DNA of 64,000 nucleotides from contig DCLA01000024.1 in assembly GCA_002320815.1 (NCBI GenBank), positions 767 to 64,766 on the forward strand, in the 5' to 3' direction. How positions within the stretch are numbered: the first letter of the stretch is position 1; each line of letters begins with the position of its first letter. Position numbers and translations under genes: made by a program. The DNA is from Myxococcales bacterium UBA1660. GTDB taxonomy: Bacteria > Myxococcota_A > Polyangia > Polyangiales > Houyiibacteriaceae. Under the pieces are notes generated by a model. The model searched no databases and had not been told where the DNA came from. It saw nothing but the letters and a program-made list of their open reading frames with translations. Of the stretch, positions 1-54,159 are shown piece by piece.

Positions 1-2178
1 GGCTTCGCGCCCCAGGGCTCCGGGCAGACCGCGACCTGCGTCGACGTGAACGAGTGCACCGCGACCCCGGGGCTCTGCGGCCCGGGCACCTGCTCCAACG
101 GGGTCGGCAACTACACCTGCGCCTGCAACCCGGGCTACACCTTCGACGGATCGACCTGCGTCAACGTCGACGAGTGCGCAGTGGCCAGCCAGTGCGGCCG
201 GGACCTGAGCGCGTCGAACGCCTGTACCGACACCGCCGGCAGCTACGATTGCACCTGCGCCAGCGGCTACACGGAGGTGTCCCCGGGCGGCAGCGAGGAC
301 TGCGTGGACACCAACGAGTGTGTCGTCACGCCGGGGATCTGCGGCGTCGGCACCTGCGTGAACCAGAACGGGGGGTACACCTGCACCTGCCCGAGCGGCT
401 ACGAGCTCGCGGGCGGCACGTGCGTGGACATCGACGAGTGCGCGGGCACCCCCTGCGGCGCGTCGGCCACGAGCTGCACCAACACCGCGGGCTCTTACGT
501 CTGCGCCTGCAGCGCGGGCTACTCCGCGCCCGCCTCCGGAGGGAGCTGCGCCGACGTGAACGAATGCGCCAACGCCAGCACCTGCGGCGCCGAACGCGCG
601 GGCTGCGCCAACACCGCCGGCTCCTACGTCTGCACTTGCAACGGCGGCTACCGCGCGCCGGGCTCCGGCGGCACCTGCGCCGACGTCGACGAGTGCGACG
701 AGAACCCGGGCACGTGCGGCGCGGGCACCTGCGCCAACACCGTGGGCAGCTACGCCTGCACCTGCGATCCCGGCTACGAGGCCCCGGCCCTCGGCGGGAG
801 CTGCGACGACATCGACGAGTGCGCGACCGCGTCCACCTGCGGCAGCGCCCGCGCCGGCTGCTCGAACCTGCCCGGCACCTACGAGTGCTCCTGCGACCCC
901 GGCTACCGGGCCCCCGCCAGCGGCGGCAGCTGCGCGGACATCGACGAGTGCGCCGAGGGCGAGCCCTGCACCCCGGGCACCTGCGCCAACGGCGCCGGCA
1001 CCTACACCTGCACCTGTCCGACCGGCTTCATGGAGAGCGACGGCGCCTGCGTGGACATCGACGAGTGTGCCGGAAACCCCTGCAACACCGGCACCTGCAC
1101 CGAGGGCGACCCCGGCACCTACCTCTGCGACTGTGACCCCGGCTACCAGGCCACGGCGCCCATCGACGGCACCTGCGAGGACGTCGACGAGTGCGCCGAC
1201 CCGGCGCTGAGCATGTGCGACACCAACGCCTCCTGCACCAACGCCATCGGGTCCTTCACCTGCACCTGCGACGAGGGCTGGGCCGGCGACGGTACGACCT
1301 GCGAGAACGTCGACGAGTGCGCCGACGCGAGCCTCAACGAGTGCAACCCCAACGCCCTCTGCACCGACCTCGACGGGACCTACGAGTGCACCTGCCGGGA
1401 GGGCTTCGAAGGCAGCGGGGTGGACTGCTTCGACGTCGACGAGTGCGCGGTCGCCGATCCCTGCGGGGAGAACGAGCGCTGCGTGAACCTCATCGGCACC
1501 GCCCCCGAATGCGTCTGTGTCTCGGGCACGGTCCGCGACGAAGAGAGCGGGGTCTGCGTCTCCGGCTGCGGCAACGGGGTCCGGGCGCGCGGTGAGGAGT
1601 GCGACGACGGCAACGACGAGGACGGTGACGGCTGCGACGCCCGCTGCCAGGTGGAGCCCGGCTGGGCCTGCTTCGAGCCCGACGGCAGCGCCTCGGTCTG
1701 CGACGACACCTGCCCCGACGAGTTCGTCCAGCTCAACGAGGAGTGCGACAACGGCGAGGGCGGGAACTCGGACACCGAGCCCGACACCTGCCGGACCAAC
1801 TGCAAGCTGCCCTGGTGCGGCGATGGCGTGGTCGACACCGGCGAGACCTGTGACGAGGGCGACGCCAACTCCGACGGTTCGCCCGGCGCCTGCCGCACGA
1901 CCTGCCAACCCGCCTACTGCGGCGACGGCGTCGTGGACAGCGGCGAGCGCTGCGACCCCGGTGGCGGCTCGGTGCTCGACGTCGCCGCCTGCAGCGAGAC
2001 CGGCTGCGCGGCGGATGGCGGCGTCTTCGACGGCGGGGAGCCCGACGCCGGCACGGACGCGGACACCGACGACGGCTGCGGCTGCCGGGTCGCCAGCCCC
2101 CGGGACGTGGGCATGGGCCTCGTCTGGCTCCTCGGGCTCGGCCTGGCGCTCCGCCGCCGGCGGGGCGAGGGAGACTGA
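1..2178 (+). CDS. Cell-surface protein (5' end outside window): calcium-binding EGF-like repeat array + myxobacterial Cys-rich repeats + MYXO-CTERM sorting tail
   Basis: Frame 1 is open from nt 1 (GFAPQGSGQTATCVDVNEC...), so the CDS begins upstream of the window. It has 12 tandem 40-45 aa modules starting D/N-x-D/N-E-C and containing G(S/T)YxCxCxxG(Y/F), the cbEGF pattern. About 4 CG(D/N)GVVDxGExCD Cys-rich repeats follow. The C-terminus is DDGCGCRVA + hydrophobic helix + RRRR. Stop TGA 2176-2178. Confidence 0.85.
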   Translation, partial: GFAPQGSGQTATCVDVNECTATPGLCGPGTCSNGVGNYTCACNPGYTFDGSTCVNVDECAVASQCGRDLSASNACTDTAGSYDCTCASGYTEVSPGGSEDCVDTNECVVTPGICGVGTCVNQNGGYTCTCPSGYELAGGTCVDIDECAGTPCGASATSCTNTAGSYVCACSAGYSAPASGGSCADVNECANASTCGAERAGCANTAGSYVCTCNGGYRAPGSGGTCADVDECDENPGTCGAGTCANTVGSYACTCDPGYEAPALGGSCDDIDECATASTCGSARAGCSNLPGTYECSCDPGYRAPASGGSCADIDECAEGEPCTPGTCANGAGTYTCTCPTGFMESDGACVDIDECAGNPCNTGTCTEGDPGTYLCDCDPGYQATAPIDGTCEDVDECADPALSMCDTNASCTNAIGSFTCTCDEGWAGDGTTCENVDECADASLNECNPNALCTDLDGTYECTCREGFEGSGVDCFDVDECAVADPCGENERCVNLIGTAPECVCVSGTVRDEESGVCVSGCGNGVRARGEECDDGNDEDGDGCDARCQVEPGWACFEPDGSASVCDDTCPDEFVQLNEECDNGEGGNSDTEPDTCRTNCKLPWCGDGVVDTGETCDEGDANSDGSPGACRTTCQPAYCGDGVVDSGERCDPGGGSVLDVAACSETGCAADGGVFDGGEPDAGTDADTDDGCGCRVASPRDVGMGLVWLLGLGLALRRRRGEGD

Positions 2179-44528: not shown

Positions 44529-45833
44529 TCAGGCGTCGTCGTCGGCCGAGTCCCCCTCGGCGGGACCGTCGGCGACCTCTTCGTCGGCGAGCTCGCCCTC
44601 GTCGGCCGAGTCGTCGCCGCCGTCCTCGGCCAGCTCCTCGCCCAGCGCGTCTTCCTCGGCGTCTTCGTCCGCGTCCTCTTCCTCGGCCACGCCGACGAAG
44701 GGCAGGAGGGAGACGCCACCCAGGCGCGCCGCGAGCCAGCGCACCGGCTCGGGCTGCTCGATGAAGGCGGCCAGGAGCTCCGCCTCCGGCCCCTCGGCGC
44801 CTTCCAGGTCGTGGGCCTCGAAGTCGGGGCTGTCCACGAAGACCTGCTCCTGCCCATCGGCGCTCACCACGCGCACCTCGAGCTCCAGGTCCTGCTCGAC
44901 CCGCGGGCGCGGCATGCGCAGGCGCCGGCGACGGTTGGCCGGCCCCCGCAGGGTGCCGTAGCGCGCCCGGCGACCGGGGCCGCTCCAGTCGACCCACTGG
45001 GTGCGGTTCCGGCGGGCGTCGACATGGACGAACGAGCTGCGCGGGTAGAAGCCGCAGCCGGCGTGGTTGATGCGCCGGCAGTACTCCCAGACCGCCCGGT
45101 GGGGCACGCCGGAGATGCGGATGTCGGTGGCGCGCCCCTTGGTGTGGCGGCTGCTCTCGCGGGTGCGGCCGCCCGCCGAGCGGTAGCCGCTGACGATGCG
45201 GATGGGTCGCCCGCCGAAGTGGTCGGAGATCCGCGCGAGCAAGAGCGCCAGGCGCGGGTTGGCCGCCGGGACGCGGTCGTCGTCGCTGCGCGCGAGCAGC
45301 TCCCGGAGCGCCGCGACGCCTTCCTGCAGGACGCGCCCCTCGCCGTCCACGAGCTGCACCTCGCGGCGCTCGGAGCGCCGCAGGAAGGTGACCCGGCCCG
45401 GGTGGTCGGCCTCGCCGTAGTCCCGGTTCAGCTGCTCCTCGGGGGTGTGCCCGGGCATGACGATACGCTGTCCGGGCCGGATGCGCGCGTTGCGCCGGAG
45501 CCGGTTGGCGCGCCGGAGCTCGTCGACGCCCACGTGCATCCGGTGGGCGATGTGGCTCAGGGTCTCTCCCCGCCGCACGTAGGTCACGCCGCGGTCGGGG
45601 ATGGTCAACGACTGCCCCGGCCGGAGCCGCGCGCTGCGGAGCTGGTTGGCGGCGCGGAGGTCGGACACCGAGACCCGGTAGCGCCGCGCGATGGCCGCCA
45701 GGGTCTGGCCCGAGCGCACCGTGTGGTGCCGCTCGGCGAGCGCCTGCGCGGGCCAGAGGGACCCCAGCACGAAGGCGAGCCCCAGAGCGCGGAGCGCCCA
45801 GCCGGAGAGCCGATTCCTCGGTGCGTTCGTCAT
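44529..45833 (-). CDS. Secreted LysM x2 + peptidase M15A (YcbK/DUF882-like) cell-wall hydrolase with acidic C-terminal tail
   Basis: ATG 45833 (MTNAPRNRLSGWALRALGLAFVLGSLWPAQALA). LysM repeats HTVRSGQTLAAIARRYRVSVSDLRAAN and YVRRGETLSHIAHRMHVGVDELRRAN. Zn ligand pattern SSRHTKGRATDIRI...SFVHVD. The last ~60 aa are D/E-rich. Confidence 0.85.
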   Translation of the reverse strand: MTNAPRNRLSGWALRALGLAFVLGSLWPAQALAERHHTVRSGQTLAAIARRYRVSVSDLRAANQLRSARLRPGQSLTIPDRGVTYVRRGETLSHIAHRMHVGVDELRRANRLRRNARIRPGQRIVMPGHTPEEQLNRDYGEADHPGRVTFLRRSERREVQLVDGEGRVLQEGVAALRELLARSDDDRVPAANPRLALLLARISDHFGGRPIRIVSGYRSAGGRTRESSRHTKGRATDIRISGVPHRAVWEYCRRINHAGCGFYPRSSFVHVDARRNRTQWVDWSGPGRRARYGTLRGPANRRRRLRMPRPRVEQDLELEVRVVSADGQEQVFVDSPDFEAHDLEGAEGPEAELLAAFIEQPEPVRWLAARLGGVSLLPFVGVAEEEDADEDAEEDALGEELAEDGGDDSADEGELADEEVADGPAEGDSADDDA

Positions 45834-45923: not shown

Positions 45924-46463
45924 TTGCCCCCGCAGCGCCGATCCGTTATGACGCGGCGCACCATGCGTTACCGGGTCACCCTCGAAGGCACCGAGCGAGA
46001 CATCGACGTTCAGATCGCCCCCGGCGGCTCGGTGGCGGTCACCGTGGACGGCGAGCCCGTCGACGCCGATGTCCGCCGCATCCCCGGCGGCGTGAGCCTC
46101 ACCCTCGACGGCAAGGTCTTCGACGTCCTCGTCGGGGGCCCCGCGGAGTCCATGGACCTCGCGGCCGGCGTGCTTCGCGGCACGGCCAGCGTGGAGTCGG
46201 AGCGGAACCGCTCGCGGAAGAAGAAGGGCGGCGCCGCCGGCGACTCGTCCGAGATCCGCGCGCCGATGCCCGGTCGCATCGTGAAGATCCTCGTCGCCGC
46301 CGGCGACACCATCGAAGCGGGCGCGCCCGTGGTGGTGGTCGAGGCGATGAAGATGGAGAACGAGCTCCGCGCCGAGAAGGCCGGCAAGATCGCCGCCGTC
46401 GAGGTGGAAGAGGGTCAGGCCGTCGAGAGCGGCACCCTCCTGGTCAAGCTCGCCGACGAGTGA
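45924..46463 (+). CDS. Stand-alone biotin/lipoyl-attachment (BCCP-like) domain protein
   Basis: C-terminal IRAPMPGRIVKILVAAGDTIEAGAPVVVVEAMKMENELRAEKAGKI with the AMKM biotinyl-lysine motif. The true start may be ATG 45948 or 45963. Confidence 0.8.
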   Translation: MPPQRRSVMTRRTMRYRVTLEGTERDIDVQIAPGGSVAVTVDGEPVDADVRRIPGGVSLTLDGKVFDVLVGGPAESMDLAAGVLRGTASVESERNRSRKKKGGAAGDSSEIRAPMPGRIVKILVAAGDTIEAGAPVVVVEAMKMENELRAEKAGKIAAVEVEEGQAVESGTLLVKLADE

Positions 46464-46529: not shown

Positions 46530-47300
46530 ATGAGCACCGACGACCGCCGCGCCAAGGGCCCCGAGCGCCCTGCCGAGCCCGCCGCCAAGAGCGGCCTCGG
46601 CAAGCTCTTCCCCAAGCGCTACGACCCCCTGACCAGCCTGGTCCTCGTGGTGCCGGTCTTCGTGATCTACCACCTGGGCATCCTGCTCATGGACCGGCGC
46701 AACGGCGTCGATCTCGCCAGCACCCTCTTCTTCGGCGTGCTGCGGCAGAGCGTGGGGCTCTACGTCGGGCTCACCCTGGCCATCGGCGCGGCGCTCATCG
46801 GCGCGGGCTTCTATCTGCGGAAGAAGGGCAAGGCGCGGGTCTTCGCCTTCGTCCCCGTGCTCCTGGAGAGCTTCGTCTGGGCCATCGTGATGACCTTCAC
46901 GGTCGGCTGGCTGACGGCGCAGGTGCTGCCCGATCCGGCGCTCCAGGTCGGCGCGAACCCGCTGGGGCCCATCGACAAGATCGTGATGAGCTGCGGCGCG
47001 GGCTTCCACGAGGAGCTCGTCTTCCGGGTGGTGATCTTCGGGGGCCTGGGGCTCCTCTTCCGGCGCGTGCTGAACCTCCGGGCCACCCTCTCGTTCGCGC
47101 TGGCGCTGGTGATCTCGTCCGCGATCTTCAGCGGGATCCACTACGTCGGCGAGCTCGGGGACGAGTTCACCCTGGCCAGCTTCGTCTTCCGCTTCTTCGC
47201 CGGCGTGTATCTCGCCTTGCTCTATCGCTTCCGTGGATTCGCCGTCGCGGTCTATGCTCACGCGCTCTACGACGTGATGGTCCTGCTCTTCCTGAGCTGA
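46530..47300 (+). CDS. CPBP-family (CAAX-protease-like) intramembrane glutamic endopeptidase
   Basis: Polytopic membrane protein with all three CPBP motifs: HEELVFR (EExxxR), FSGIHY (FxxxH) and HALYD (HxxxN/D). Confidence 0.85.
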   Translation: MSTDDRRAKGPERPAEPAAKSGLGKLFPKRYDPLTSLVLVVPVFVIYHLGILLMDRRNGVDLASTLFFGVLRQSVGLYVGLTLAIGAALIGAGFYLRKKGKARVFAFVPVLLESFVWAIVMTFTVGWLTAQVLPDPALQVGANPLGPIDKIVMSCGAGFHEELVFRVVIFGGLGLLFRRVLNLRATLSFALALVISSAIFSGIHYVGELGDEFTLASFVFRFFAGVYLALLYRFRGFAVAVYAHALYDVMVLLFLS

Positions 47301-47324
47301 CCCCGCCCCTGCGCCCCGAATCCC

Positions 47325-48746
47325 TTGCCTCGCATCCTCCTCGCCCTCCTGGCGGCGACGCTCGCGCTCCCCAGCCCGAGTCGCGCCGATTGGCTCCAGG
47401 TCCTCCCCAACTGCGCCATGGGGGACACCGTCCGGCGCCCCGGCCCCGCCGAGCTCCTCTATCCCCAGGCGGGTCTCGCGGCCTACGCCAATCCCGGCCA
47501 GCCCCTGGTGCTCCGGGTCAAGGTGCCCGCGCCGCTGACGCCGCCCCCGGGGGTCCAGCAGGAGCGCGCCCTCCGGGGTTGGCTCTTCGAGCTGGTGGAC
47601 GAGGACGCGATCGCGGTCGGCGGCGCCCGCCATCACTACCGGCTCCGGGTCGAAGACGTCCGACCCGACGGCCAGTCCACGCTGGTCTATCGGGTCACGG
47701 TCCAGCTCCCGCCCTGGCTGGCGCCGGGGACCTACGACGTGCGCCTCCGGGCGCCGGGCAGCGAGGACATCCGCGTGCGCGCCGGCGTCCGCATCGGGGC
47801 CGGGGCGCCGCGGCTGGGCACCCTCCGCGAGCTCCCCGCCGATCCCGGGGTGCTGCGGAGACTCCCGGTCGACGTCTGGCTCGTGGGCGAGCCGGACCCG
47901 GCAACCGCCGACGCGACCCCGGCGACCGCCGCGGCCACCGGCGCCGTCCCCTGGCTGGACCGGCGCCGCACCTTCGCCGTTCGCGTGGGCGACGACCTGC
48001 TCACCAGCGGCGGCTGCGACGACGTCCACCTGCCCTTCGCCGTCGGCGTGGCCCGGGTGGGCGGCGCCGTCGTCGAGGCTCCGCCCGTACCCCCGGTGGG
48101 CACGATGGCGTTCGCCGGCGAGACAGCTCCGGTCCCCACCGAGCCCGGCCTCCGGGCTCGCGGCGACGGCTGGGTCGCCCGGGGCGCGTCCCCGCTCGAG
48201 GTCTCGGTGGTCTTCCCCGAGGGAGACCGGGGCCTCGCCCTCCGCGGCGCGAGCGAGCGCCTCGGCTTCTGGCCCGGCACCCCGGTGCGCCCCCACGGGC
48301 AGCGCGCCAGCGTGGTCGGGCGATGGTCGGTCGCGCCGGGCGCGGCGCTCGGGGTGGTCCGCCTGGACGCCGATCCGCCGAGCCTCGAGGTGGTGGTCCC
48401 CTCCGCGCCGACCACCCACGGCCCCACCCCGGTCCGGGTGCGCAGCGAGGGCAGCGTCGCGCTGGCCTGGGAAGAAGACGGCACCGCGTACGTGCCGGGC
48501 GCGGGCGACCGCTCGGTCCCCCTCCACTTCCACTGGCTCGAGCGGCGCGAGGTCCACGCCCTGGCCATCGGCCCCCGGGGCGCGGCCACCCGCACGGCCA
48601 CCGTCACCGAGGTGGTCACCGAGCGCCCGGGCTGCAGCGCCAGCCCCGGTCGAGGGCCCGCCGGCCCCCTCCTGGCCCTCCTCGTCGGCGGCTTCCTTTG
48701 CGGAAGGCGCCGGCCGCGCTACACCCGTCGCCGCCCCCGGGAATAG
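47325..48746 (+). CDS. Secreted protein of unknown function with MYXO-CTERM-like C-terminal sorting tail
   Basis: TTG start 24 nt after the CPBP stop. Signal peptide MPRILLALLAATLALPSPSRA. C-terminus ERPGCSASPGRGPAGPLLALLVGGFLCGRRRPRYTRRRPRE (Gly-Cys, small residues, TM helix, Arg cluster). Confidence 0.75.
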   Translation: MPRILLALLAATLALPSPSRADWLQVLPNCAMGDTVRRPGPAELLYPQAGLAAYANPGQPLVLRVKVPAPLTPPPGVQQERALRGWLFELVDEDAIAVGGARHHYRLRVEDVRPDGQSTLVYRVTVQLPPWLAPGTYDVRLRAPGSEDIRVRAGVRIGAGAPRLGTLRELPADPGVLRRLPVDVWLVGEPDPATADATPATAAATGAVPWLDRRRTFAVRVGDDLLTSGGCDDVHLPFAVGVARVGGAVVEAPPVPPVGTMAFAGETAPVPTEPGLRARGDGWVARGASPLEVSVVFPEGDRGLALRGASERLGFWPGTPVRPHGQRASVVGRWSVAPGAALGVVRLDADPPSLEVVVPSAPTTHGPTPVRVRSEGSVALAWEEDGTAYVPGAGDRSVPLHFHWLERREVHALAIGPRGAATRTATVTEVVTERPGCSASPGRGPAGPLLALLVGGFLCGRRRPRYTRRRPRE

Positions 48747-48764: not shown

Positions 48765-49271
48765 TTGCGAACCGTCTCCATGTCTCAGAGCCTCACCGCG
48801 AAGATCGTCCTGGCCCTGGCCCTCGTGGGCTGCGCCCAGACCATCCCCAACACCACCGTCGAGGACACGGCGGACAACCGGTCCGTGGTCTCCTTCATGG
48901 AGAGCTACCGCAAGGCCATGGAGGAACGGGACGTCCGGCGCCTCATGGAGATGGCCTCGCCCCAATACCTCGACGACAACGGGACCCCGAGCGGCGCCGA
49001 CGACATCGACTACGACACCCTCCGCGAGAACCTCGCCCTGTGGGCTCAGCGGGTCGACGACGTCCGCTACGACATCAGCTACCGGCGGATCACCTACGCC
49101 CCGGGCGACAAGGTGTACGTCGAGGTGCGCTACGGTGGGTCCTTCCACATCAGCCGCCCGGCCACCGAGGACGAGCAGTGGTCCCGGCGCCTCTCGAACC
49201 ACCGCCTGATCCTGCAGAAGCTCCCCGAGGCCGAGGGCGAAGACGAATTCCGCATCCTCTCGGGGATGTAA
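48765..49271 (+). CDS. Lipoprotein, SnoaL/NTF2-like fold suspected
   Basis: Lipobox LALALVGC. The pattern VVSFMESYRKAMEERDVRRLMEM... is typical of the N-terminal helices of NTF2-like domains. Call is by eye only. Confidence 0.6.
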   Translation: MRTVSMSQSLTAKIVLALALVGCAQTIPNTTVEDTADNRSVVSFMESYRKAMEERDVRRLMEMASPQYLDDNGTPSGADDIDYDTLRENLALWAQRVDDVRYDISYRRITYAPGDKVYVEVRYGGSFHISRPATEDEQWSRRLSNHRLILQKLPEAEGEDEFRILSGM

Positions 49272-49348
49272 GGGCCTCTCTTCGGCGCAGAATCGTCCGA
49301 AGCCATTGATGCGGGGGCCGCGAGTCGGCTAGGGTGCCGTTGTCCCGC

Positions 49349-50818
49349 ATGAGTGGCGACAAGAAGAAGCTCGGCAAAATCCTGCTGAAGCAGCGAGCGG
49401 TTACCCCCGAAGAGTTGCAGCGCTTGCTCGAACGGCAGGAGTCGCAGCCCGGGCATCGGCTCGCGTCCGTCGCCCAGAGCAGCGGTTCGGTGGCCCCCAA
49501 GGAGCTCCTCAAGGCCCTGAGCGAGCAGCACGGGGTGCCGGGGATCGACCTCGACCAGGTCGTCGTGCCCCTGCAGAACCTCGACCTGGTGCCCGAGGAC
49601 GTGGCGCGGCAGCACCTGATCCTCCCCATCCTGGTCAAGGAGGACCGAGTCTTCCTGGCCATGTCCGATCCGACCGACCGCCGGGTCATCGAGGAGATCG
49701 AGTTCGTCACCGGGCGCCGGGTCTTCCCCTACGTGGCCATCCACGACGCCCTCGCCGGGATCATCGGCAAGGCCTACGAGGGCAAGAAGCGCGGCGACGA
49801 GCACTACATCGGGCCCACGGTCCCGGCGGACTACCTCGAGTCCCTGGGGCTCGCGCCGACCTCGGGCCGCCCCTCGGAACCGCCCAACGAGCCCTCGGGC
49901 GTGGTCGTCGACCGCGCCATCGCCGACGGCGGGCTCGACCACGACGACGAGCTCGGCCTGGCCGAGCTCACGAAAAAAGCCTCCGCTCCCCACGACCCCT
50001 TTGCATCTCAGGTGGCGCCGATGCCCACCGAAGGAGCCGTCCGCGTGCGCCCCGCCAGCCCGAAGATCCTCGTCGTCGACGACGAGGACGACATCCGCAA
50101 GATGCTCAGCCGGGTGCTCCAGAAGAAGGGGTTCGAGGTGCTCGAGGCGTCCAAGGGGCTGCAGGCGCTCCAGCTCGTGCGGGAAAGCACGCCCGACGTA
50201 ATCCTCCTCGACGCGATGCTCCCCGAGGTCCACGGCTTCGACATCTGCCGCCGGATCAAGGGCTCCAAGCGCTACGGGCACATCCCCATCATCATGGTCA
50301 GCGCGATCTACCGGGGTTGGCGCGTCGCCGAGGACCTGCGCACCAGCTACGGCGTGGACGCCTTCCTGGAGAAGCCCTTCAAGATCGGCGAGGTCGTGGC
50401 CCACGTCGAGCGGGTGCTCGAGGGTCGCGCCTCCGAGCTCCCGATGGACGACATGCTGAGCCGCGAGGCCAGCGACGCGCTCGAGCGGGGCATGGACATG
50501 TACCGCCAGGGCGACCTCGACGGCGCCATCGACAAGCTGCGCTCCGGGCTCAAGATCGACCCGCTGAGCTTCCAGCTCCACTACCACCTGGGCCTGCTCT
50601 GCGGTCGCCGCGACGACGTCTTCGAGGCCATCCACGAGCTGGAGACGGCGGTGGACCTGCAGCCCCGCAACTTCAGCGCTCTGAAGAACCTGGCGATCCT
50701 CTACCAGCGCGCCGGCTTCAAGCACAAAGCGGTCGAGATGTGGGAGCGGAGCCTGGGCGCGGCCACCGACGAAGGCACCCGCCAGGGCATCAAGGAACAC
50801 CTGATGAGCTTGCTTTGA
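49349..50818 (+). CDS. Response regulator with N-terminal T2SSE_N/MshEN-like domain, receiver domain and C-terminal TPR
   Basis: N-terminus KLGKILLKQRAVTPEELQRLLERQ (GspE/PilB N-domain type). REC domain KILVVDDEDDIRKML...DVILLDAMLPEVHG...KPF. C-terminal TPR-like repeats. Confidence 0.8.
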   Translation: MSGDKKKLGKILLKQRAVTPEELQRLLERQESQPGHRLASVAQSSGSVAPKELLKALSEQHGVPGIDLDQVVVPLQNLDLVPEDVARQHLILPILVKEDRVFLAMSDPTDRRVIEEIEFVTGRRVFPYVAIHDALAGIIGKAYEGKKRGDEHYIGPTVPADYLESLGLAPTSGRPSEPPNEPSGVVVDRAIADGGLDHDDELGLAELTKKASAPHDPFASQVAPMPTEGAVRVRPASPKILVVDDEDDIRKMLSRVLQKKGFEVLEASKGLQALQLVRESTPDVILLDAMLPEVHGFDICRRIKGSKRYGHIPIIMVSAIYRGWRVAEDLRTSYGVDAFLEKPFKIGEVVAHVERVLEGRASELPMDDMLSREASDALERGMDMYRQGDLDGAIDKLRSGLKIDPLSFQLHYHLGLLCGRRDDVFEAIHELETAVDLQPRNFSALKNLAILYQRAGFKHKAVEMWERSLGAATDEGTRQGIKEHLMSLL

Positions 50819-50983: not shown

Positions 50984-52531
50984 ATGAAGTTCCTCTGCGA
51001 CAACTGCAAGGCCAAGTACCAGATCCCGGACGAGAAGATCCGGGGTCGCACCCTGAAGATGAAGTGCCGCAAGTGCGAGCACCCCATCCTCATCAAGGGC
51101 CCCCAGGAGGCCGCCGCCGCGGCTCCCGCCGCGCCCCGCCGCCCGGCCAGCAAGCCCACGGCGAAGCCCGCCGCGCCCCGCCGTCGCGGCGGCTCGAGCG
51201 TCGGCCCCCGCCCCGTCAGCCGGCCGGCTCCCTCGACCGCCGCCGCCAGCGCCCTCGGCGCCGAGTTCCGCCGGAGCGGCTCCCTCGCGCCGGAGCCCGC
51301 GCCGCAGAAGACCGCCGTCGAGTGGTACGTGGCGATCAACGACGTCCCCGTCGGCCCGGTGAAGCGCGACGAGATGGCCCGAAAGATCGGGACCGGCGCC
51401 GTCCACGGCAAGAGCCTCACCTGGCGTGAGGGCATGGACGATTGGAAGCCCCTGGAGCAGATCCCGGAGCTGGCCTCGCTCCTGGCCTCCCGTCGGGTTC
51501 CCGCGCCGCCGCCCCCGGTCGCCGGCGGACCGACCGCCAAGGAGGCCTCCGGGCGCTCCAACGTCGTGCCCATCGGCGGCCGCATGGGCGCCACCGCCTA
51601 CGACGACGACGACGAGAAGACGATGATCGCCGCGATCCCGACGGCGGCCCCGGACCCCAGCTCCCCCGACCTCACGCCGCTCCCCATCGGTGAGCCGGCC
51701 GTCGCCGCCGCGATCACCGCGCCCGCGACCGACGTGGGTGGCTTCCAGCAGGCGCCCCCGGCGGTGATGGAGCCCGCCTCGCCGGCCCTCACGCCCGCCC
51801 AGCCCCAGCAGTCCCGCGGGCTCCCGCCGCCCCTGCTCATCGCGCTGGTCGGCGCCGGCGCCTTCGGCGTGGCCCTGGCGGTCATCGCCGGCAAGAAGAT
51901 GTTCGCCGACGAGCCGGCGGTGGTCGCCGCCGTCGAGGATCCCCTGGACCAGGTCGAGGACTACGACCCGGACCTGGAGATCCCCGAGGAAGAGGTCCCC
52001 GAAGAGGAGACCCCCGAGGAGGAGACTCCCGAGGAGGAGACCCCCGAGGAGGAGACCCCCGCGGCCGAGAGCGGGACCCGCACCACCCGGCGCGCGACCA
52101 CCACCGCGATGACCGGCACCAGCACCATGGCGCTGAGCGCCGAGCAGCAGGCCCTCCTGGCTCGCTATGGCGGCAGCGGCGCCTCCGACCCGAGCCTGAT
52201 GAACGTGAACGTGGGCACCGGGTCGAACAGCAACCGCCCCGAGCTCGACGCCTCGGCCGTGCGGCGCGTGGTGAGCGCCTCGAGCAACCAGCGCGCGCTG
52301 CGACGCTGCTACGAGACCGCCATCCGCGGCGCCAGCGACGCGCCGAGCGTCCGCATGGACGTCGAGGTCCGGGTGGGTGCCTCGGGCACCGTCACCCGGG
52401 TGTCGGCCGTGGGGCAGGACTACAACGGACTCAAGAGCTGCATCGAGCAGGCCGTCCGGCGGTGGCGCTTCCCGGCCTCCTCGGCGGGCGGCGAGACCCG
52501 CTTCCCGGTCGTCTTCTCGCCCGCGGGCTGA
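50984..52531 (+). CDS. GltJ/AgmX-like protein: Zn-ribbon + GYF_2 domain + TM + AgmX/PglI (TonB-C-like) C-terminal domain
   Basis: MKFLCDNCKAKYQIPDEKIRGRTLKMKCRKCEH (MJ0042-type zinc ribbon). EWYVAINDVPVGPVKRDEMARKIGTGAVHGKSLTWREGMDDWKPLEQIPEL (GYF_2). TM helix LLIALVGAGAFGVALAVIAG. C-terminus RALRRCYETAIRG...VRMDVEVRVGASGTV...LKSCIEQAVRRWRFP. Confidence 0.8.
   Translation: MKFLCDNCKAKYQIPDEKIRGRTLKMKCRKCEHPILIKGPQEAAAAAPAAPRRPASKPTAKPAAPRRRGGSSVGPRPVSRPAPSTAAASALGAEFRRSGSLAPEPAPQKTAVEWYVAINDVPVGPVKRDEMARKIGTGAVHGKSLTWREGMDDWKPLEQIPELASLLASRRVPAPPPPVAGGPTAKEASGRSNVVPIGGRMGATAYDDDDEKTMIAAIPTAAPDPSSPDLTPLPIGEPAVAAAITAPATDVGGFQQAPPAVMEPASPALTPAQPQQSRGLPPPLLIALVGAGAFGVALAVIAGKKMFADEPAVVAAVEDPLDQVEDYDPDLEIPEEEVPEEETPEEETPEEETPEEETPAAESGTRTTRRATTTAMTGTSTMALSAEQQALLARYGGSGASDPSLMNVNVGTGSNSNRPELDASAVRRVVSASSNQRALRRCYETAIRGASDAPSVRMDVEVRVGASGTVTRVSAVGQDYNGLKSCIEQAVRRWRFPASSAGGETRFPVVFSPAG
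51986..52060 (+). repeat. 15-bp in-frame tandem repeat x5 encoding EEEVP(EEETP)4
   Basis: gaggaagaggtcccc / gaagaggagaccccc / gaggaggagactccc / gaggaggagaccccc / gaggaggagaccccc. Confidence 0.9.
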
Positions 52532-53073: not shown

Positions 53074-53340
53074 GTGGACCCCGCCGAGCTCACGCGCCTG
53101 ACGGCCGAGACTCTCTACCTGGTGCTGCTGGTCTCGGCGCCGCCGCTCCTGGTGGCGTTGGCGATCGGCCTCGTCGTCGGGCTCCTGCAGGCGGTGACCC
53201 AGGTCCAGGAGCAGACCCTCTCCTTCGTGCCCAAGCTCGTCGCGGTGGCCACGGTGCTGGTGGTCGGCGGCGGCTGGATGGGCGGGCAGCTCCTCCGCTT
53301 CACCGAGCGCCTCTGGACCGCCATCCCCGAGCTCATGTGA
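53074..53340 (+). CDS. sctS: Type III secretion [15 protein letters not shown] protein, SctS/FliQ family
   Basis: 88 aa. LVLLVSAPPLLVALAIGLVVGLLQAVTQVQEQTLSFVPKLVAVATVLVVGGGWM is colinear with FliQ/YscS (the QxxTQxxExTLxFxPK core). Confidence 0.85.
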   Translation: MDPAELTRLTAETLYLVLLVSAPPLLVALAIGLVVGLLQAVTQVQEQTLSFVPKLVAVATVLVVGGGWMGGQLLRFTERLWTAIPELM

Positions 53341-53346
53341 GCCCCG

Positions 53347-54159
53347 GTGGAGGCGCTCCTTCGACTCCTGGGTGGGGAAGCCGCGGCCACCGAGTGGCTG
53401 GCCGTGGGCGGCTTGGTGGCGGCCCGGGTGGGCCCCCTGACCGTGCTCGCGCCCTGGCTCTCCCTGAAGCGCACCCCGCCGGTCATCCGCGGCGCGCTGG
53501 TCCTGGCGCTCACTCTGGCCCTCACGCCGCTGGCCCTGCCCGGCGCCCGGGAGGCGGTCATGGCCATGGGCGGGCTCACCTACGGCGCCGCCGTCCTCCG
53601 CGAAGCGATGGTGGGCACCCTCTTCGCGGTGGCCACCGCCCTGCCCTTCTACGCCCTCGACTGGGCCGGGCGCCTGACCGACACCTGGCGCGGGGCCTCG
53701 ATGTCCGAGGTGATCGCGCCCAACACCGGCGAGCGGACCAGCCCCCTGGGCGACCTGCACATGATGCTGGGCATCGCCCTCTTCCTGACCCTGGGCGGCC
53801 ACCGGCTGGCCCTGGCCGCCTTCGCCGAGGGGCTCCGGGTGGCCCCGGTGGGCTCGGTGGACCTGGCCGGCCGCGCCGACGCCCTGGCCCTCGGGGCCGC
53901 GCTGCTCACCGGCTCCGCGCTGGCGTTCGCCCTGGCCATCGCCGCGCCGGCCGCGGCGGCAATCGTCACCGTGGAGGTCAGCCTGGGGCTCCTGGCCCGG
54001 AGCGCGCCCCAGGTGCCGGTCTTCTTCGCCGGCATGCCCCTGCGGGCGGCCACCGGCCTCGCCGCCGCGCTCCTGGCCATCTCGCTGGTCTCGGCGCAGC
54101 TCCCCGAGGCCTTCCGCGCGGCCATCGACCTCGGCCGCCGCTGGGTCGTCGGCGACTGA
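53347..54159 (+). CDS. sctT: Type III secretion [15 protein letters not shown] protein, SctT/FliR family
   Basis: GTG start 6 nt after the sctS stop. 6-TM protein. Motifs ARVGPLTVLAPW, REAMVGTLFAV and LLARSAPQVPVFFAGMPLRAATGL (the aRxaPQxNvFxxgxPlk core of FliR/YscT). Confidence 0.8.
   Translation: MEALLRLLGGEAAATEWLAVGGLVAARVGPLTVLAPWLSLKRTPPVIRGALVLALTLALTPLALPGAREAVMAMGGLTYGAAVLREAMVGTLFAVATALPFYALDWAGRLTDTWRGASMSEVIAPNTGERTSPLGDLHMMLGIALFLTLGGHRLALAAFAEGLRVAPVGSVDLAGRADALALGAALLTGSALAFALAIAAPAAAAIVTVEVSLGLLARSAPQVPVFFAGMPLRAATGLAAALLAISLVSAQLPEAFRAAIDLGRRWVVGD

Follow-up and report, generated by a model that had tools for sequence, protein, structure and literature searches.

Organization of the locus

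Two neighbouring genes, one for a predicted intramembrane protease of the CPBP family and one for a secreted protein with a Cys-containing C-terminal tail, lie within the window, that is, the whole 64-kb stretch of DNA that was analysed. The features that bear on their relationship are the following.

1..2178, + strand, cut by the window edge: Cys-rich acidic-repeat protein (TIGR02232, 44.1 bits) with a canonical GCGC MYXO-CTERM tail, used as a control
45924..46463, + strand: biotinyl/lipoyl carrier-domain protein (PF00364, 76.8 bits), directly 5' of the CPBP gene
46530..47300, + strand: predicted CPBP/Rce1-like glutamic intramembrane protease, 256 aa (PF02517)
47325..48746, + strand: 473-aa secreted protein, TTG start, identical in the ENA gene call
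47325..47387, + strand: predicted Sec signal peptide, aa 1-21 (...PSPSRA followed by DWL), read from the sequence
48624..48746, + strand: tripartite tail of the 473-aa protein, aa 434-473, up to the stop codon (Cys signature, Pro/Gly-rich spacer, TM helix, Arg-rich end)
48765..49271, + strand: NTF2/SnoaL-like predicted lipoprotein with lipobox LVGC; the ENA call starts at ATG 48780
49334..50818, + strand: protein with MshEN (PF05157, 75.6 bits), response-regulator receiver (PF00072, 84.7 bits) and TPR matches
50984..52531, + strand: GltJ/GltG-like paralogue with a zinc ribbon, GYF_2 and an AgmX/PglI (TonB-C-like) C-terminal domain

Counted from the TGA of the CPBP gene at 47298-47300, the gap to the gene for the 473-aa protein is 24 nt. 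ENA, whose gene calls for a 176-kb contig were made independently, has the same two genes. The first-pass annotation had described a CPBP protein followed closely by a signal-peptide protein with no recognizable domains, and both gene structures are as it gave them. Promoter and terminator scans of the + strand between the two genes found neither a promoter-like nor a terminator-like site. Co-transcription of the pair is compatible with this result, but in a genome of 72% GC an empty scan is not evidence for it.

The genes that follow form a conserved string consisting of the 473-aa gene, the lipoprotein gene, the MshEN-receiver-TPR gene and, last, the GltJ-like gene. The match of the lipoprotein to SnoaL_2 and NTF2_YvbJ is weak and falls below cutoff in each case. 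The product of 50984-52531 passes the cutoffs of PF13717, PF14237 and NF033768, and its zinc ribbon, GYF domain and AgmX/PglI C-terminal domain recall GltJ and GltG of the Agl-Glt gliding machinery. Unlike those proteins, it fails the equivalog models (103.5 bits for GltJ, where 450 is required, and 28.2 against 650), and among the genes of the string no further Glt component was recognized.

A regular-expression search of the stop-to-stop ORFs that reach 100 aa, 297 in the 64-kb window, recovered a Cys/TM/basic C-terminus in two proteins only, the 473-aa protein and the product of 1-2178. MYXO-CTERM proteins are expected in Myxococcia or Polyangia, and in large numbers per genome. Within the same window no further CPBP-like ORF was found besides 46530-47300. 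The 64 kb available show no canonical myxosortase, a point to be counted against assigning the 473-aa protein to such an enzyme.

The CPBP protein

The 256-aa protein scores 43.0 bits against PF02517 (gathering threshold 22.4), in agreement with the precomputed ENA annotation. The three catalytic motifs reported in the first pass (HEELVFR, FSGIHY and HALYD) are in place, since GFHEELVFR, AIFSGIHY and AHALYD all fall in ORF 46530-47300 and fit the patterns EExxxR, FxxxH and HxxxN/D, the third with D where N is possible (HxxxD). Among 45 orthologues E161, E162, R166, F200, H204, H244 and D248 are invariant. Conservation is also strong in the N-terminal half (D32, T35, P42, Y47, G59, D61), which includes RNGVD and YHLG motifs.

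The suggestion that this protein is a myxosortase did not survive the model check that had been proposed along with it. The myxosortase core model (NF040914, Mrt_core) gives 11.8 bits (E=0.19) against a cutoff of 100, and the MrtJ model (NF033192) gives 18.9 against 75. The MroQ model gives 23.7 bits against a cutoff of 270. A bacteriocin-immunity or Abi-type protein, the former named in the first pass as the outcome that would overturn its proposal, is equally unsupported, no specific subfamily model having matched. Judged by its sequence, the protein is a CPBP/Rce1-like paralogue of an uncharacterised subfamily lying outside the myxosortase family.

Homologues number 859, and the subfamily extends over Polyangia, Nannocystia and Bradymonadia. 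The best relatives are Sandaracinus and Sandaracinaceae MAGs. The AF2 model (pLDDT 88.4) consists almost throughout of long helices. Foldseek comparison of the model with the PDB, in which a polytopic fold like that of MmRce1 was of interest, gave no significant match; the best relevant one was SpdC (6u0o_A, TM ~0.37, rank 44). Matches to Mcl-1-type helical bundles were judged spurious, as was the single match from a profile search of PDB sequences, which yielded nothing real.

The secreted protein and its tail

Pfam and NCBIfam scans of the 473-aa protein give zero matches, the family having no model in either collection, and its 37 homologues all come from Myxococcota-type metagenomes or MAGs. 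At the signal-peptide region the family conserves A21, D22, W23 and L24 to 90% or more, and the AF2 model places a hydrophobic N-terminal helix at aa 2-13. The model (pLDDT 87.5, pTM 0.84) is mostly beta, and as modelled the protein is a series of several beta-sandwich domains ending in a MYXO-CTERM-like sorting signal. Foldseek matches are limited to strings of Ig-like or macroglobulin domains of a generic kind, at TM ~0.15, so no function can be transferred to the protein in this way.

The C-terminus reads ...ERPGCSASPGRGPAGPLLALLVGGFLCGRRRPRYTRRRPRE, with Cys437 (codon 48633-48635) 36 residues from the C-terminal end. The AF2 model puts C437 in a disordered linker of low confidence past the last beta domain, and the TM helix follows at aa 448-461 (48666-48707). 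The helix, LLALLVGGFLCG, is free of charged residues and of Pro and is followed by the Arg-rich RRRPRYTRRRPRE. The succession of Cys, TM helix and Arg cluster is therefore present just as the first-pass annotation quoted it.

Whether this layout amounts to a MYXO-CTERM signal has a divided answer. The tail alone scores 17.4 and 17.7 bits against TIGR03901, below the cutoff of 20, and the whole protein gives no match at E<=1. The model is short and lineage-specific iteration is needed (Haft). Across 56 tails of the family the Cys is the sole invariant column, 10-25 residues N-terminal to the helix in variable surroundings; 9/56 tails score about 20 bits or higher with TIGR03901, 19/56 have E<=0.1, and 11 of the 56 match TIGR03382. 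In several members the motif is the canonical GCGC, and these pass the MYXO-CTERM model. The control protein, whose C-terminus is ...DDGCGCRVASPRDVGMGLVWLLGLGLALRRRRGEGD, passes TIGR03901 with 20.0 bits as a whole and 27.2 bits for its tail alone. The first pass had likened the 473-aa tail to that of an EGF-repeat protein; it is this protein that was meant, and the tail was read correctly, while its repeats are of the myxobacterial Cys-rich acidic type and not EGF repeats as such. From these comparisons the 473-aa C-terminus appears to be a borderline MYXO-CTERM-type tripartite Cys signal. It has one Cys and additional conserved cytoplasmic motifs, FLC and RY. A sub-cutoff, single-Cys tail with such motifs could also mean a variant signal with an enzyme of its own, which would tell against a housekeeping enzyme.

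Gene order among relatives

Related loci numbering 126 were compared, of which 71 were testable for the CPBP neighbourhood and 36 for the presence of a CPBP gene upstream of a 473-family gene. Counts of co-occurrence were made on six-frame ORFs anchored by HMM and phmmer matches. Several 473-family genes clearly detected with the HMM escaped a simple gene caller based on GC3, which was consequently dropped for counting and used solely to list neighbours roughly.

Where both genes occur their arrangement is well conserved. They stand in tandem order in 19/20 genome loci and in 22/25 close metagenome homologues, on the same strand and some 0-160 nt apart, down to ~30% identity of the 473-aa protein. 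A tandem that is near constant to such depth could reflect functional coupling, and in that respect counts against a view of the 473-aa protein as a client of some other enzyme.

The wider distribution is less regular. A 473-family gene adjoins the CPBP gene in 20/71 testable loci and is not adjacent in 51/71, and the catalytic residues are intact also in the loci that lack it. The lipoprotein, MshEN-receiver-TPR and GltJ-like genes follow CPBP in 38/71 loci, and none of these neighbours is found in 32/71; in one locus (L021) just the 473-family gene of the string was detected, on the strand opposite to CPBP. The order CPBP, lipoprotein, MshEN-receiver-TPR, GltJ-like is retained without a 473-family gene in 19 loci, and in six loci the lipoprotein gene comes immediately 3' of CPBP. 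The slot vacated by the 473-aa gene never holds another Cys-tailed protein, being either empty or occupied by unrelated genes that by sequence look like flavodoxin, GTP cyclohydrolase I and an FprA-type reductase. The ORFs downstream of CPBP in Nannocystaceae and Bradymonadales have no Cys tail, and the neighbours there are entirely different. Upstream of CPBP lies a sigma-54-type response regulator gene in some Sandaracinaceae and a gene for a zinc-ribbon, Lys-rich protein in Nannocystaceae; the biotinyl/lipoyl carrier gene is a frequent neighbour, on either strand, in many loci. A search across the loci for a gene that always accompanies the CPBP family found none.

Viewed from the secreted protein, the constant companion is the lipoprotein. 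The NTF2-like lipoprotein gene follows the 473-family gene in 34/34 testable loci (18 nt downstream here), whereas in 14/36 loci no gene of this CPBP family lies within 1-6 kb upstream, and there the Cys tail (often GCGC) and the downstream genes are kept. Loci with and without a 473-family gene are intermixed among close CPBP relatives, which indicates repeated gain or loss of that gene with CPBP retained.

A dedicated cassette would be expected to comprise a protease subfamily limited to sites that bear a client, and usually adjacent to it. That is not the pattern found. A client elsewhere in the genome is possible, and CPBP loci without an adjacent 473-aa gene may carry one there, a possibility that weighs against the housekeeping alternative developed below. 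Nor are there unrelated adjacent clients alike in their tails alone: every Cys-tailed protein next to a CPBP gene is a member of the single 473-aa family. Comparative genomics thus argues against a dedicated enzyme-substrate pair. Of the protease-substrate cassette proposed in the first pass, the adjacency stands, as a conserved feature of a clade, and the exclusive relationship is not supported, given CPBP genes without the 473-family gene and 473-family genes without CPBP in the proportions above.

Relationship to known sorting systems

MYXO-CTERM processing is credited to a housekeeping myxosortase that is universal and present once in each genome (bioRxiv 10.1101/2023.06.07.544157; PMC11980579). 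Sixteen MYXO-CTERM species, including Sandaracinus amylolyticus, have exactly one myxosortase-cluster protein each, and paralogues give no SIMBAL signal (bioRxiv 10.1101/2023.06.07.544157). The statement in the first-pass annotation that experimental support for myxosortases is limited is outdated, as MrtX has been demonstrated to cleave the MYXO-CTERM of TraA in M. xanthus as well as in E. coli, and MrtX orthologues are present in all Myxococcota genera (PMC11980579). Mutants in two other M. xanthus CPBP paralogues, MXAN_3287 and MXAN_5231, have no additive TraA defect (PMC11980579). Some surface localization remains, unexplained, in delta-mrtX mutants (PMC11980579), which is a point against ascribing all such sorting to the housekeeping enzyme.

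With the MYXO-CTERM/MrtX/MrtC/MrtP system (TIGR03901; NF040914) the locus shares the tripartite tail, the signal peptide and a Polyangia-type genome, and the 473-aa tail is similar in layout, spacing and composition to the validated TraA tail, ...FCCGTTADATPAGSTTFLLLLAAGLTFLRPRRPAR (PMC11980579). It differs in its sub-cutoff score, its single Cys in place of GCGC and its extra conserved cytoplasmic motifs. The adjoining CPBP falls outside the myxosortase family, and housekeeping myxosortases are not expected beside their clients.

A precedent for CPBP-client neighbours is provided by JDVT-CTERM/MrtJ cassettes (NF033191/NF033192), in which the pairs are adjacent in 16/17 cases. As in those cassettes, a CPBP gene here adjoins one whose product ends in a tripartite tail with a single Cys. 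Unlike them, the CPBP is far below the MrtJ cutoff and the 473-aa helix has no DP motif; MrtJ is confined to client genomes, whereas the present CPBP is widely distributed in places where no client adjoins it. Beta- and gammaproteobacteria are the reported hosts of the MrtJ system, which is said to occur "never in the Myxococcota" (PMC11980579).

There is also a likeness to the CPBPs of myxobacteria that are not myxosortases, such as MXAN_3287 and MXAN_5231 or the nine MrtC paralogues of Chondromyces crocatus. The present protein has PF02517 and intact motifs in common with them, and like other such paralogues it coexists with MYXO-CTERM proteins and is patchy in the phylum. Its subfamily has a strongly conserved N-terminal half of its own, with the RNGVD and YHLG motifs, and is spread over Polyangia, Nannocystia and Bradymonadia.

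Proposed processing of the 473-aa protein

The 473-aa protein, itself encoded in a conserved envelope cluster, is probably an ordinary client of a housekeeping myxosortase, with the adjoining CPBP an uncharacterised paralogue. The canonical MYXO-CTERM protein at 1-2178 indicates that a general sorting system is in use. In an uncultured Sandaracinaceae-like myxobacterium the 473-aa protein would belong to the cell surface; after export by Sec, its C-terminal helix would first keep it in the inner membrane. If TraA is a guide, Cys437 would be lipidated and the chain cut just after the Cys by a housekeeping myxosortase of the MrtX/MrtC type, presumably encoded outside the window, and the processed protein would be moved to the cell surface. 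Its most likely partner would be the NTF2-like lipoprotein, within an envelope cluster that includes the MshEN-receiver-TPR and GltJ-like genes. The position of the CPBP gene would reflect lineage-specific gene order at the cluster edge and no dedicated protease-substrate relation.

An unlikely alternative is that the CPBP is tied in another way to the cluster of lipoprotein, MshEN-receiver-TPR and GltJ-like genes, as a processing or regulating component or as a non-proteolytic scaffold of the SpdC kind, with the 473-aa protein as optional cargo. The 38/71 loci with these genes downstream, and the six in which CPBP leads directly into the lipoprotein gene, would fit such a role, and SpdC is the sole plausible structural neighbour that was found. 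Yet the string, 473-aa gene included, survives where CPBP is missing, and in Nannocystaceae and Bradymonadales the CPBP family is retained amid wholly different genes. The invariance of the catalytic residues argues in addition against a pure scaffold.

It is distinctly unlikely that the two genes encode a dedicated or semi-dedicated pair in which the CPBP recognises and cleaves the lipidated Cys437 tail, as proposed for MrtJ with its JDVT-CTERM client. The CPBP would then be a second Myxococcota sorting protease, outside the Mrt core family. Such a pair would account for the same-strand tandem with short gaps in 19/20 genome loci and 22/25 metagenome homologues and for the absence of promoter-like or terminator-like sites between the genes; intact catalytic motifs, a tail under the MYXO-CTERM cutoff with family-specific cytoplasmic motifs, and the JDVT/MrtJ precedent are also in keeping with it. 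Against this, the CPBP fails both the Mrt_core and MrtJ models, 51/71 of its loci have no adjacent client, with motifs intact and no alternative Cys-tailed protein in the slot, and the 473 family keeps its tail in the 14/36 loci without a nearby CPBP. With one client family only, the Haft-type argument, which draws on unrelated proteins that have the tail alone in common, is missing, and the two other M. xanthus CPBP paralogues have no role in TraA processing.

The broader proposal that this CPBP subfamily is a second, lineage-specific sorting protease of the Polyangia, one that cuts the single-Cys tail of the 473 family and perhaps other substrates, is quite improbable. Least probable is that the tail is an unprocessed membrane anchor tethering a periplasm-facing protein to the inner membrane: the sub-cutoff tail and the lack of a whole-protein match would suit it, but a plain anchor needs no Cys, and the Cys is invariant in 56/56 tails amid variable sequence, several of them canonical GCGC tails that pass the model.

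Implications

Were the dedicated cassette real, it would offer a simple two-gene system for CPBP recognition of lipidated Cys tails, and sorting would not be limited to the Mrt core clade. A second sorting protease would likewise represent the first MrtJ-type protease-client cassette in the Myxococcota, where none has been reported. The evidence against a dedicated cassette makes the practical value of the locus more modest. Adjacency alone would have misassigned the sorting enzyme here. What the comparison defines is an unannotated family of MYXO-CTERM-type surface proteins, always accompanied by an NTF2-like lipoprotein, in a cluster with MshEN-receiver-TPR and GltJ-like genes; it also draws attention to a well-conserved CPBP subfamily that spans three myxobacterial classes.

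The gene pair

Two same-strand open reading frames, placed by the first-pass annotation within 46530-48746, are confirmed at 46530-47300 and 47325-48746 in this window of ~72% GC, and identical genes for 256-aa and 473-aa proteins were called independently by ENA on a contig of 176 kb.

Features of the window
1-2178: Cys-rich repeat protein with a canonical GCGC MYXO-CTERM; ORF cut by the window edge
44529-45800, - strand: protein combining a pair of LysM domains with peptidase M15 (MepK/DUF882-like); divergent, upstream of the biotinyl-carrier gene
46530-47300, + strand: 256-aa CPBP protease
47325-48746, + strand: 473-aa predicted secreted protein
Downstream gene of the 473-aa cluster: MshEN-REC-TPR protein, by domain matches
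50984-52531: 515-aa protein with zinc ribbon, GYF_2 and AgmX/PglI C-terminal domain
~53074-54159, just past the cluster: Bac_export_3 and Bac_export_1 (FliQ/FliR-type export apparatus; locus L127, 11750-12835, ENA gene calls)

The spacing is as annotated, with 24 nt between the TGA of the CPBP gene and the 473-aa ORF, which starts with TTG and has no obvious Shine-Dalgarno sequence ahead of it; the sequence of an orthologue, P0122, starts there too, with MPRILLAL.... The two genes share a reading frame in which the TGA at 47298-47300 is the sole separator (window 47298-47327), and there is no second stop within the 24-nt spacer.

The protease motifs HEELVFR, FSGIHY and HALYD are all found in the 256-aa protein, which passes Pfam PF02517 (43 bits, cutoff 22.4) and is thus a CPBP protease. 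Its homologues number 859, those named being Sandaracinaceae, Polyangiales or Myxococcota, and among 45 orthologues the catalytic E161, E162, R166, F200, H204, H244 and D248 are invariant, as is much of the N-terminal half. The AF2 model (pLDDT 88.4) is composed of long helices, and comparisons with solved structures were uninformative. The proposal that the enzyme is a myxosortase fails against NCBIfam, where it scores 11.8 bits on the NF040914 core model (cutoff 100), 18.9 bits on MrtJ, the JDVT-CTERM cassette enzyme (cutoff 75), and 23.7 bits on MroQ (cutoff 270); it is a member of no named subfamily.

A predicted divergent sorting signal

The 473-aa protein, described as lacking recognisable domains, indeed has no Pfam or NCBIfam match over its whole length. 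Only 37 homologues are detectable, with C30, C231 and the tail Cys437 conserved. The N-terminus resembles a signal peptide, as read from the sequence, and the C-terminus ends ...ERPGCSASPGRGPAGPLLALLVGGFLCGRRRPRYTRRRPRE, a Cys/TM/basic layout that a regex scan found in 2 of the 297 window ORFs of at least 100 aa, the other being the protein at 1-2178. The latter, annotated as an EGF-repeat protein, does carry a MYXO-CTERM tail, but its repeat is the myxobacterial Cys-rich acidic TIGR02232 (44.1 bits); used as a control, it scores 20.0 bits on TIGR03901 as a whole protein and 27.2 bits as a tail alone. The 473-aa tail alone shows the expected layout but reaches only 17.4-17.7 bits on TIGR03901 (MYXO-CTERM; cutoff 20).

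Among 56 distinct family tails gathered from proteins and loci, the sole invariant column is the Cys; 9 reach ~20 bits on TIGR03901, 19 match it at E<=0.1, and 11 match TIGR03382, the older MYXO-CTERM model. Because of the invariant Cys and these matches, the family is assigned, from sequence, a divergent MYXO-CTERM-type signal. Its layout of Cys, small/Pro-rich spacer, short helix and RPRR-type end is that of the MrtX-cleaved TraA peptide (PMC11980579). Conservation at the cytoplasmic ends goes further than the Arg cluster: the closest relatives share 'RRRFLC..RPTR' and others 'ARY..RR', motifs that the MYXO-CTERM description lacks; the window tail (48708-48743) has both FLC and RY. The AF2 model of the 473-aa protein is confident (pLDDT 87.5, pTM 0.84) and comprises several beta-sandwich domains, with Cys437 in a low-confidence linker before helix 448-461; Foldseek returned only generic Ig-like or macroglobulin-type domain strings (TM ~0.15).

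Conservation of the neighbourhood

A CPBP alignment scanned against species-representative genomes recovered 80 loci, which belong to Sandaracinaceae, other Polyangiales, Nannocystaceae and Bradymonadales, and neighbours were found by HMM search of six-frame ORFs.

Neighbours of CPBP at the 71 testable loci of the 80 (counted by individual locus, not by whole genome; many are MAG or metagenome fragments)
473-family gene adjoining: 20/71 (downstream and in tandem at 19; upstream on the other strand at L021)
Backbone only (NTF2-lipoprotein, MshEN-REC-TPR, GltJ-like), 473-family gene absent: 19/71
None of these neighbours: 32/71

At L021, the opposite-strand gene lies upstream of the biotinyl-carrier gene and CPBP, near and not co-oriented. 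In 6 of the 19 loci with the backbone only, the slot is empty and the lipoprotein gene follows CPBP after 72-181 nt; the others hold unrelated genes resembling, by sequence, flavodoxin, GTP cyclohydrolase I and FprA-type reductase, and no Cys tail was found among the slot occupants of the 19. In Nannocystaceae the downstream ORF encodes ~3,000 aa; at the Nannocystaceae-type loci L056, L060, L065, L069 and L072 it lies within 30-180 nt of the CPBP orthologue, measures ~3,070-3,100 aa and has a conserved C-terminus (...SLRQAVRGSEELRDLIAFACTKTY...) and no sorting tail. The corresponding Bradymonadales ORF is a small acidic protein of ~90 aa, and genes upstream of CPBP vary with lineage. UPGMA clustering of CPBP, which tracks phylogeny only roughly, mixes loci that have the 473-aa gene with loci that lack it: of those in one cluster at <=45% distance, 7 carry it, 8 have just the backbone, and 4 have neither or are untestable. 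The gene therefore came and went, CPBP staying intact.

In the reciprocal direction, the 473-family alignment was scanned against metagenomes and recovered 46 loci, again counted singly, 36 of them testable for upstream CPBP. The protease gene lies directly upstream in 22, and in the other 14 the available 1-6 kb upstream does not contain it; among close full-length homologues it is present in 22/25. Copies without it keep their Cys tails (often GCGC) and their downstream genes, and an NTF2-like lipoprotein gene follows the family gene in all 34 testable loci. The 473-aa gene is thus linked most tightly to its downstream genes, those for the lipoprotein and the MshEN-REC-TPR and GltJ/GltG-like proteins. 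The 515-aa protein resembles GltJ/GltG in architecture, with scores far below the equivalog cutoffs, and is therefore probably a paralogue of gliding-machinery proteins. In L101, L102 and P0155, the family ORF runs without a stop into the lipoprotein ORF (673-aa product in P0155), which is either a genuine fusion or an assembly error (missing stop or frameshift).

Protease, proposed substrate and housekeeping enzyme

An in-silico study (Haft, bioRxiv 10.1101/2023.06.07.544157) argues that a housekeeping myxosortase, serving dozens of proteins, should adjoin none of these clients, whereas single-client JDVT-CTERM/MrtJ systems are adjacent in 16/17 cases. In that study, all 16 of 16 MYXO-CTERM species, including Sandaracinus amylolyticus, have exactly one myxosortase-cluster protein; cluster members share >40% core identity, and paralogues lack the SIMBAL signal. 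The TraA tail is cleaved by MrtX in M. xanthus and E. coli (Guo, Haft, Wall, mBio 2025; PMC11980579). All Myxococcota genera have MrtX orthologues, mutation of two other M. xanthus CPBP paralogues adds no TraA defect, and MrtJ-type cassettes are reported as 'never in the Myxococcota' (PMC11980579).

Of the cassette proposed in the first-pass annotation, the identities of the CPBP and of the Cys-tailed secreted protein hold, but the protease-substrate link is weak: the CPBP falls outside the myxosortase family, its conservation reaches well past the range of the 473-aa gene and it persists where that gene has been lost, and the 473 family keeps its tail with no copy of this CPBP nearby. That the neighbouring CPBP has a dedicated or an added role is improbable. 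Most likely, by analogy with TraA at every step, the 473-aa protein would be exported by Sec and held in the inner membrane by its C-terminal helix; Cys437 would be lipidated and the chain cleaved after it by the housekeeping Mrt enzyme, whose gene would lie elsewhere in the genome, beyond the window. The protein would then reach the surface and act together with the NTF2-like lipoprotein as part of a conserved envelope cluster.
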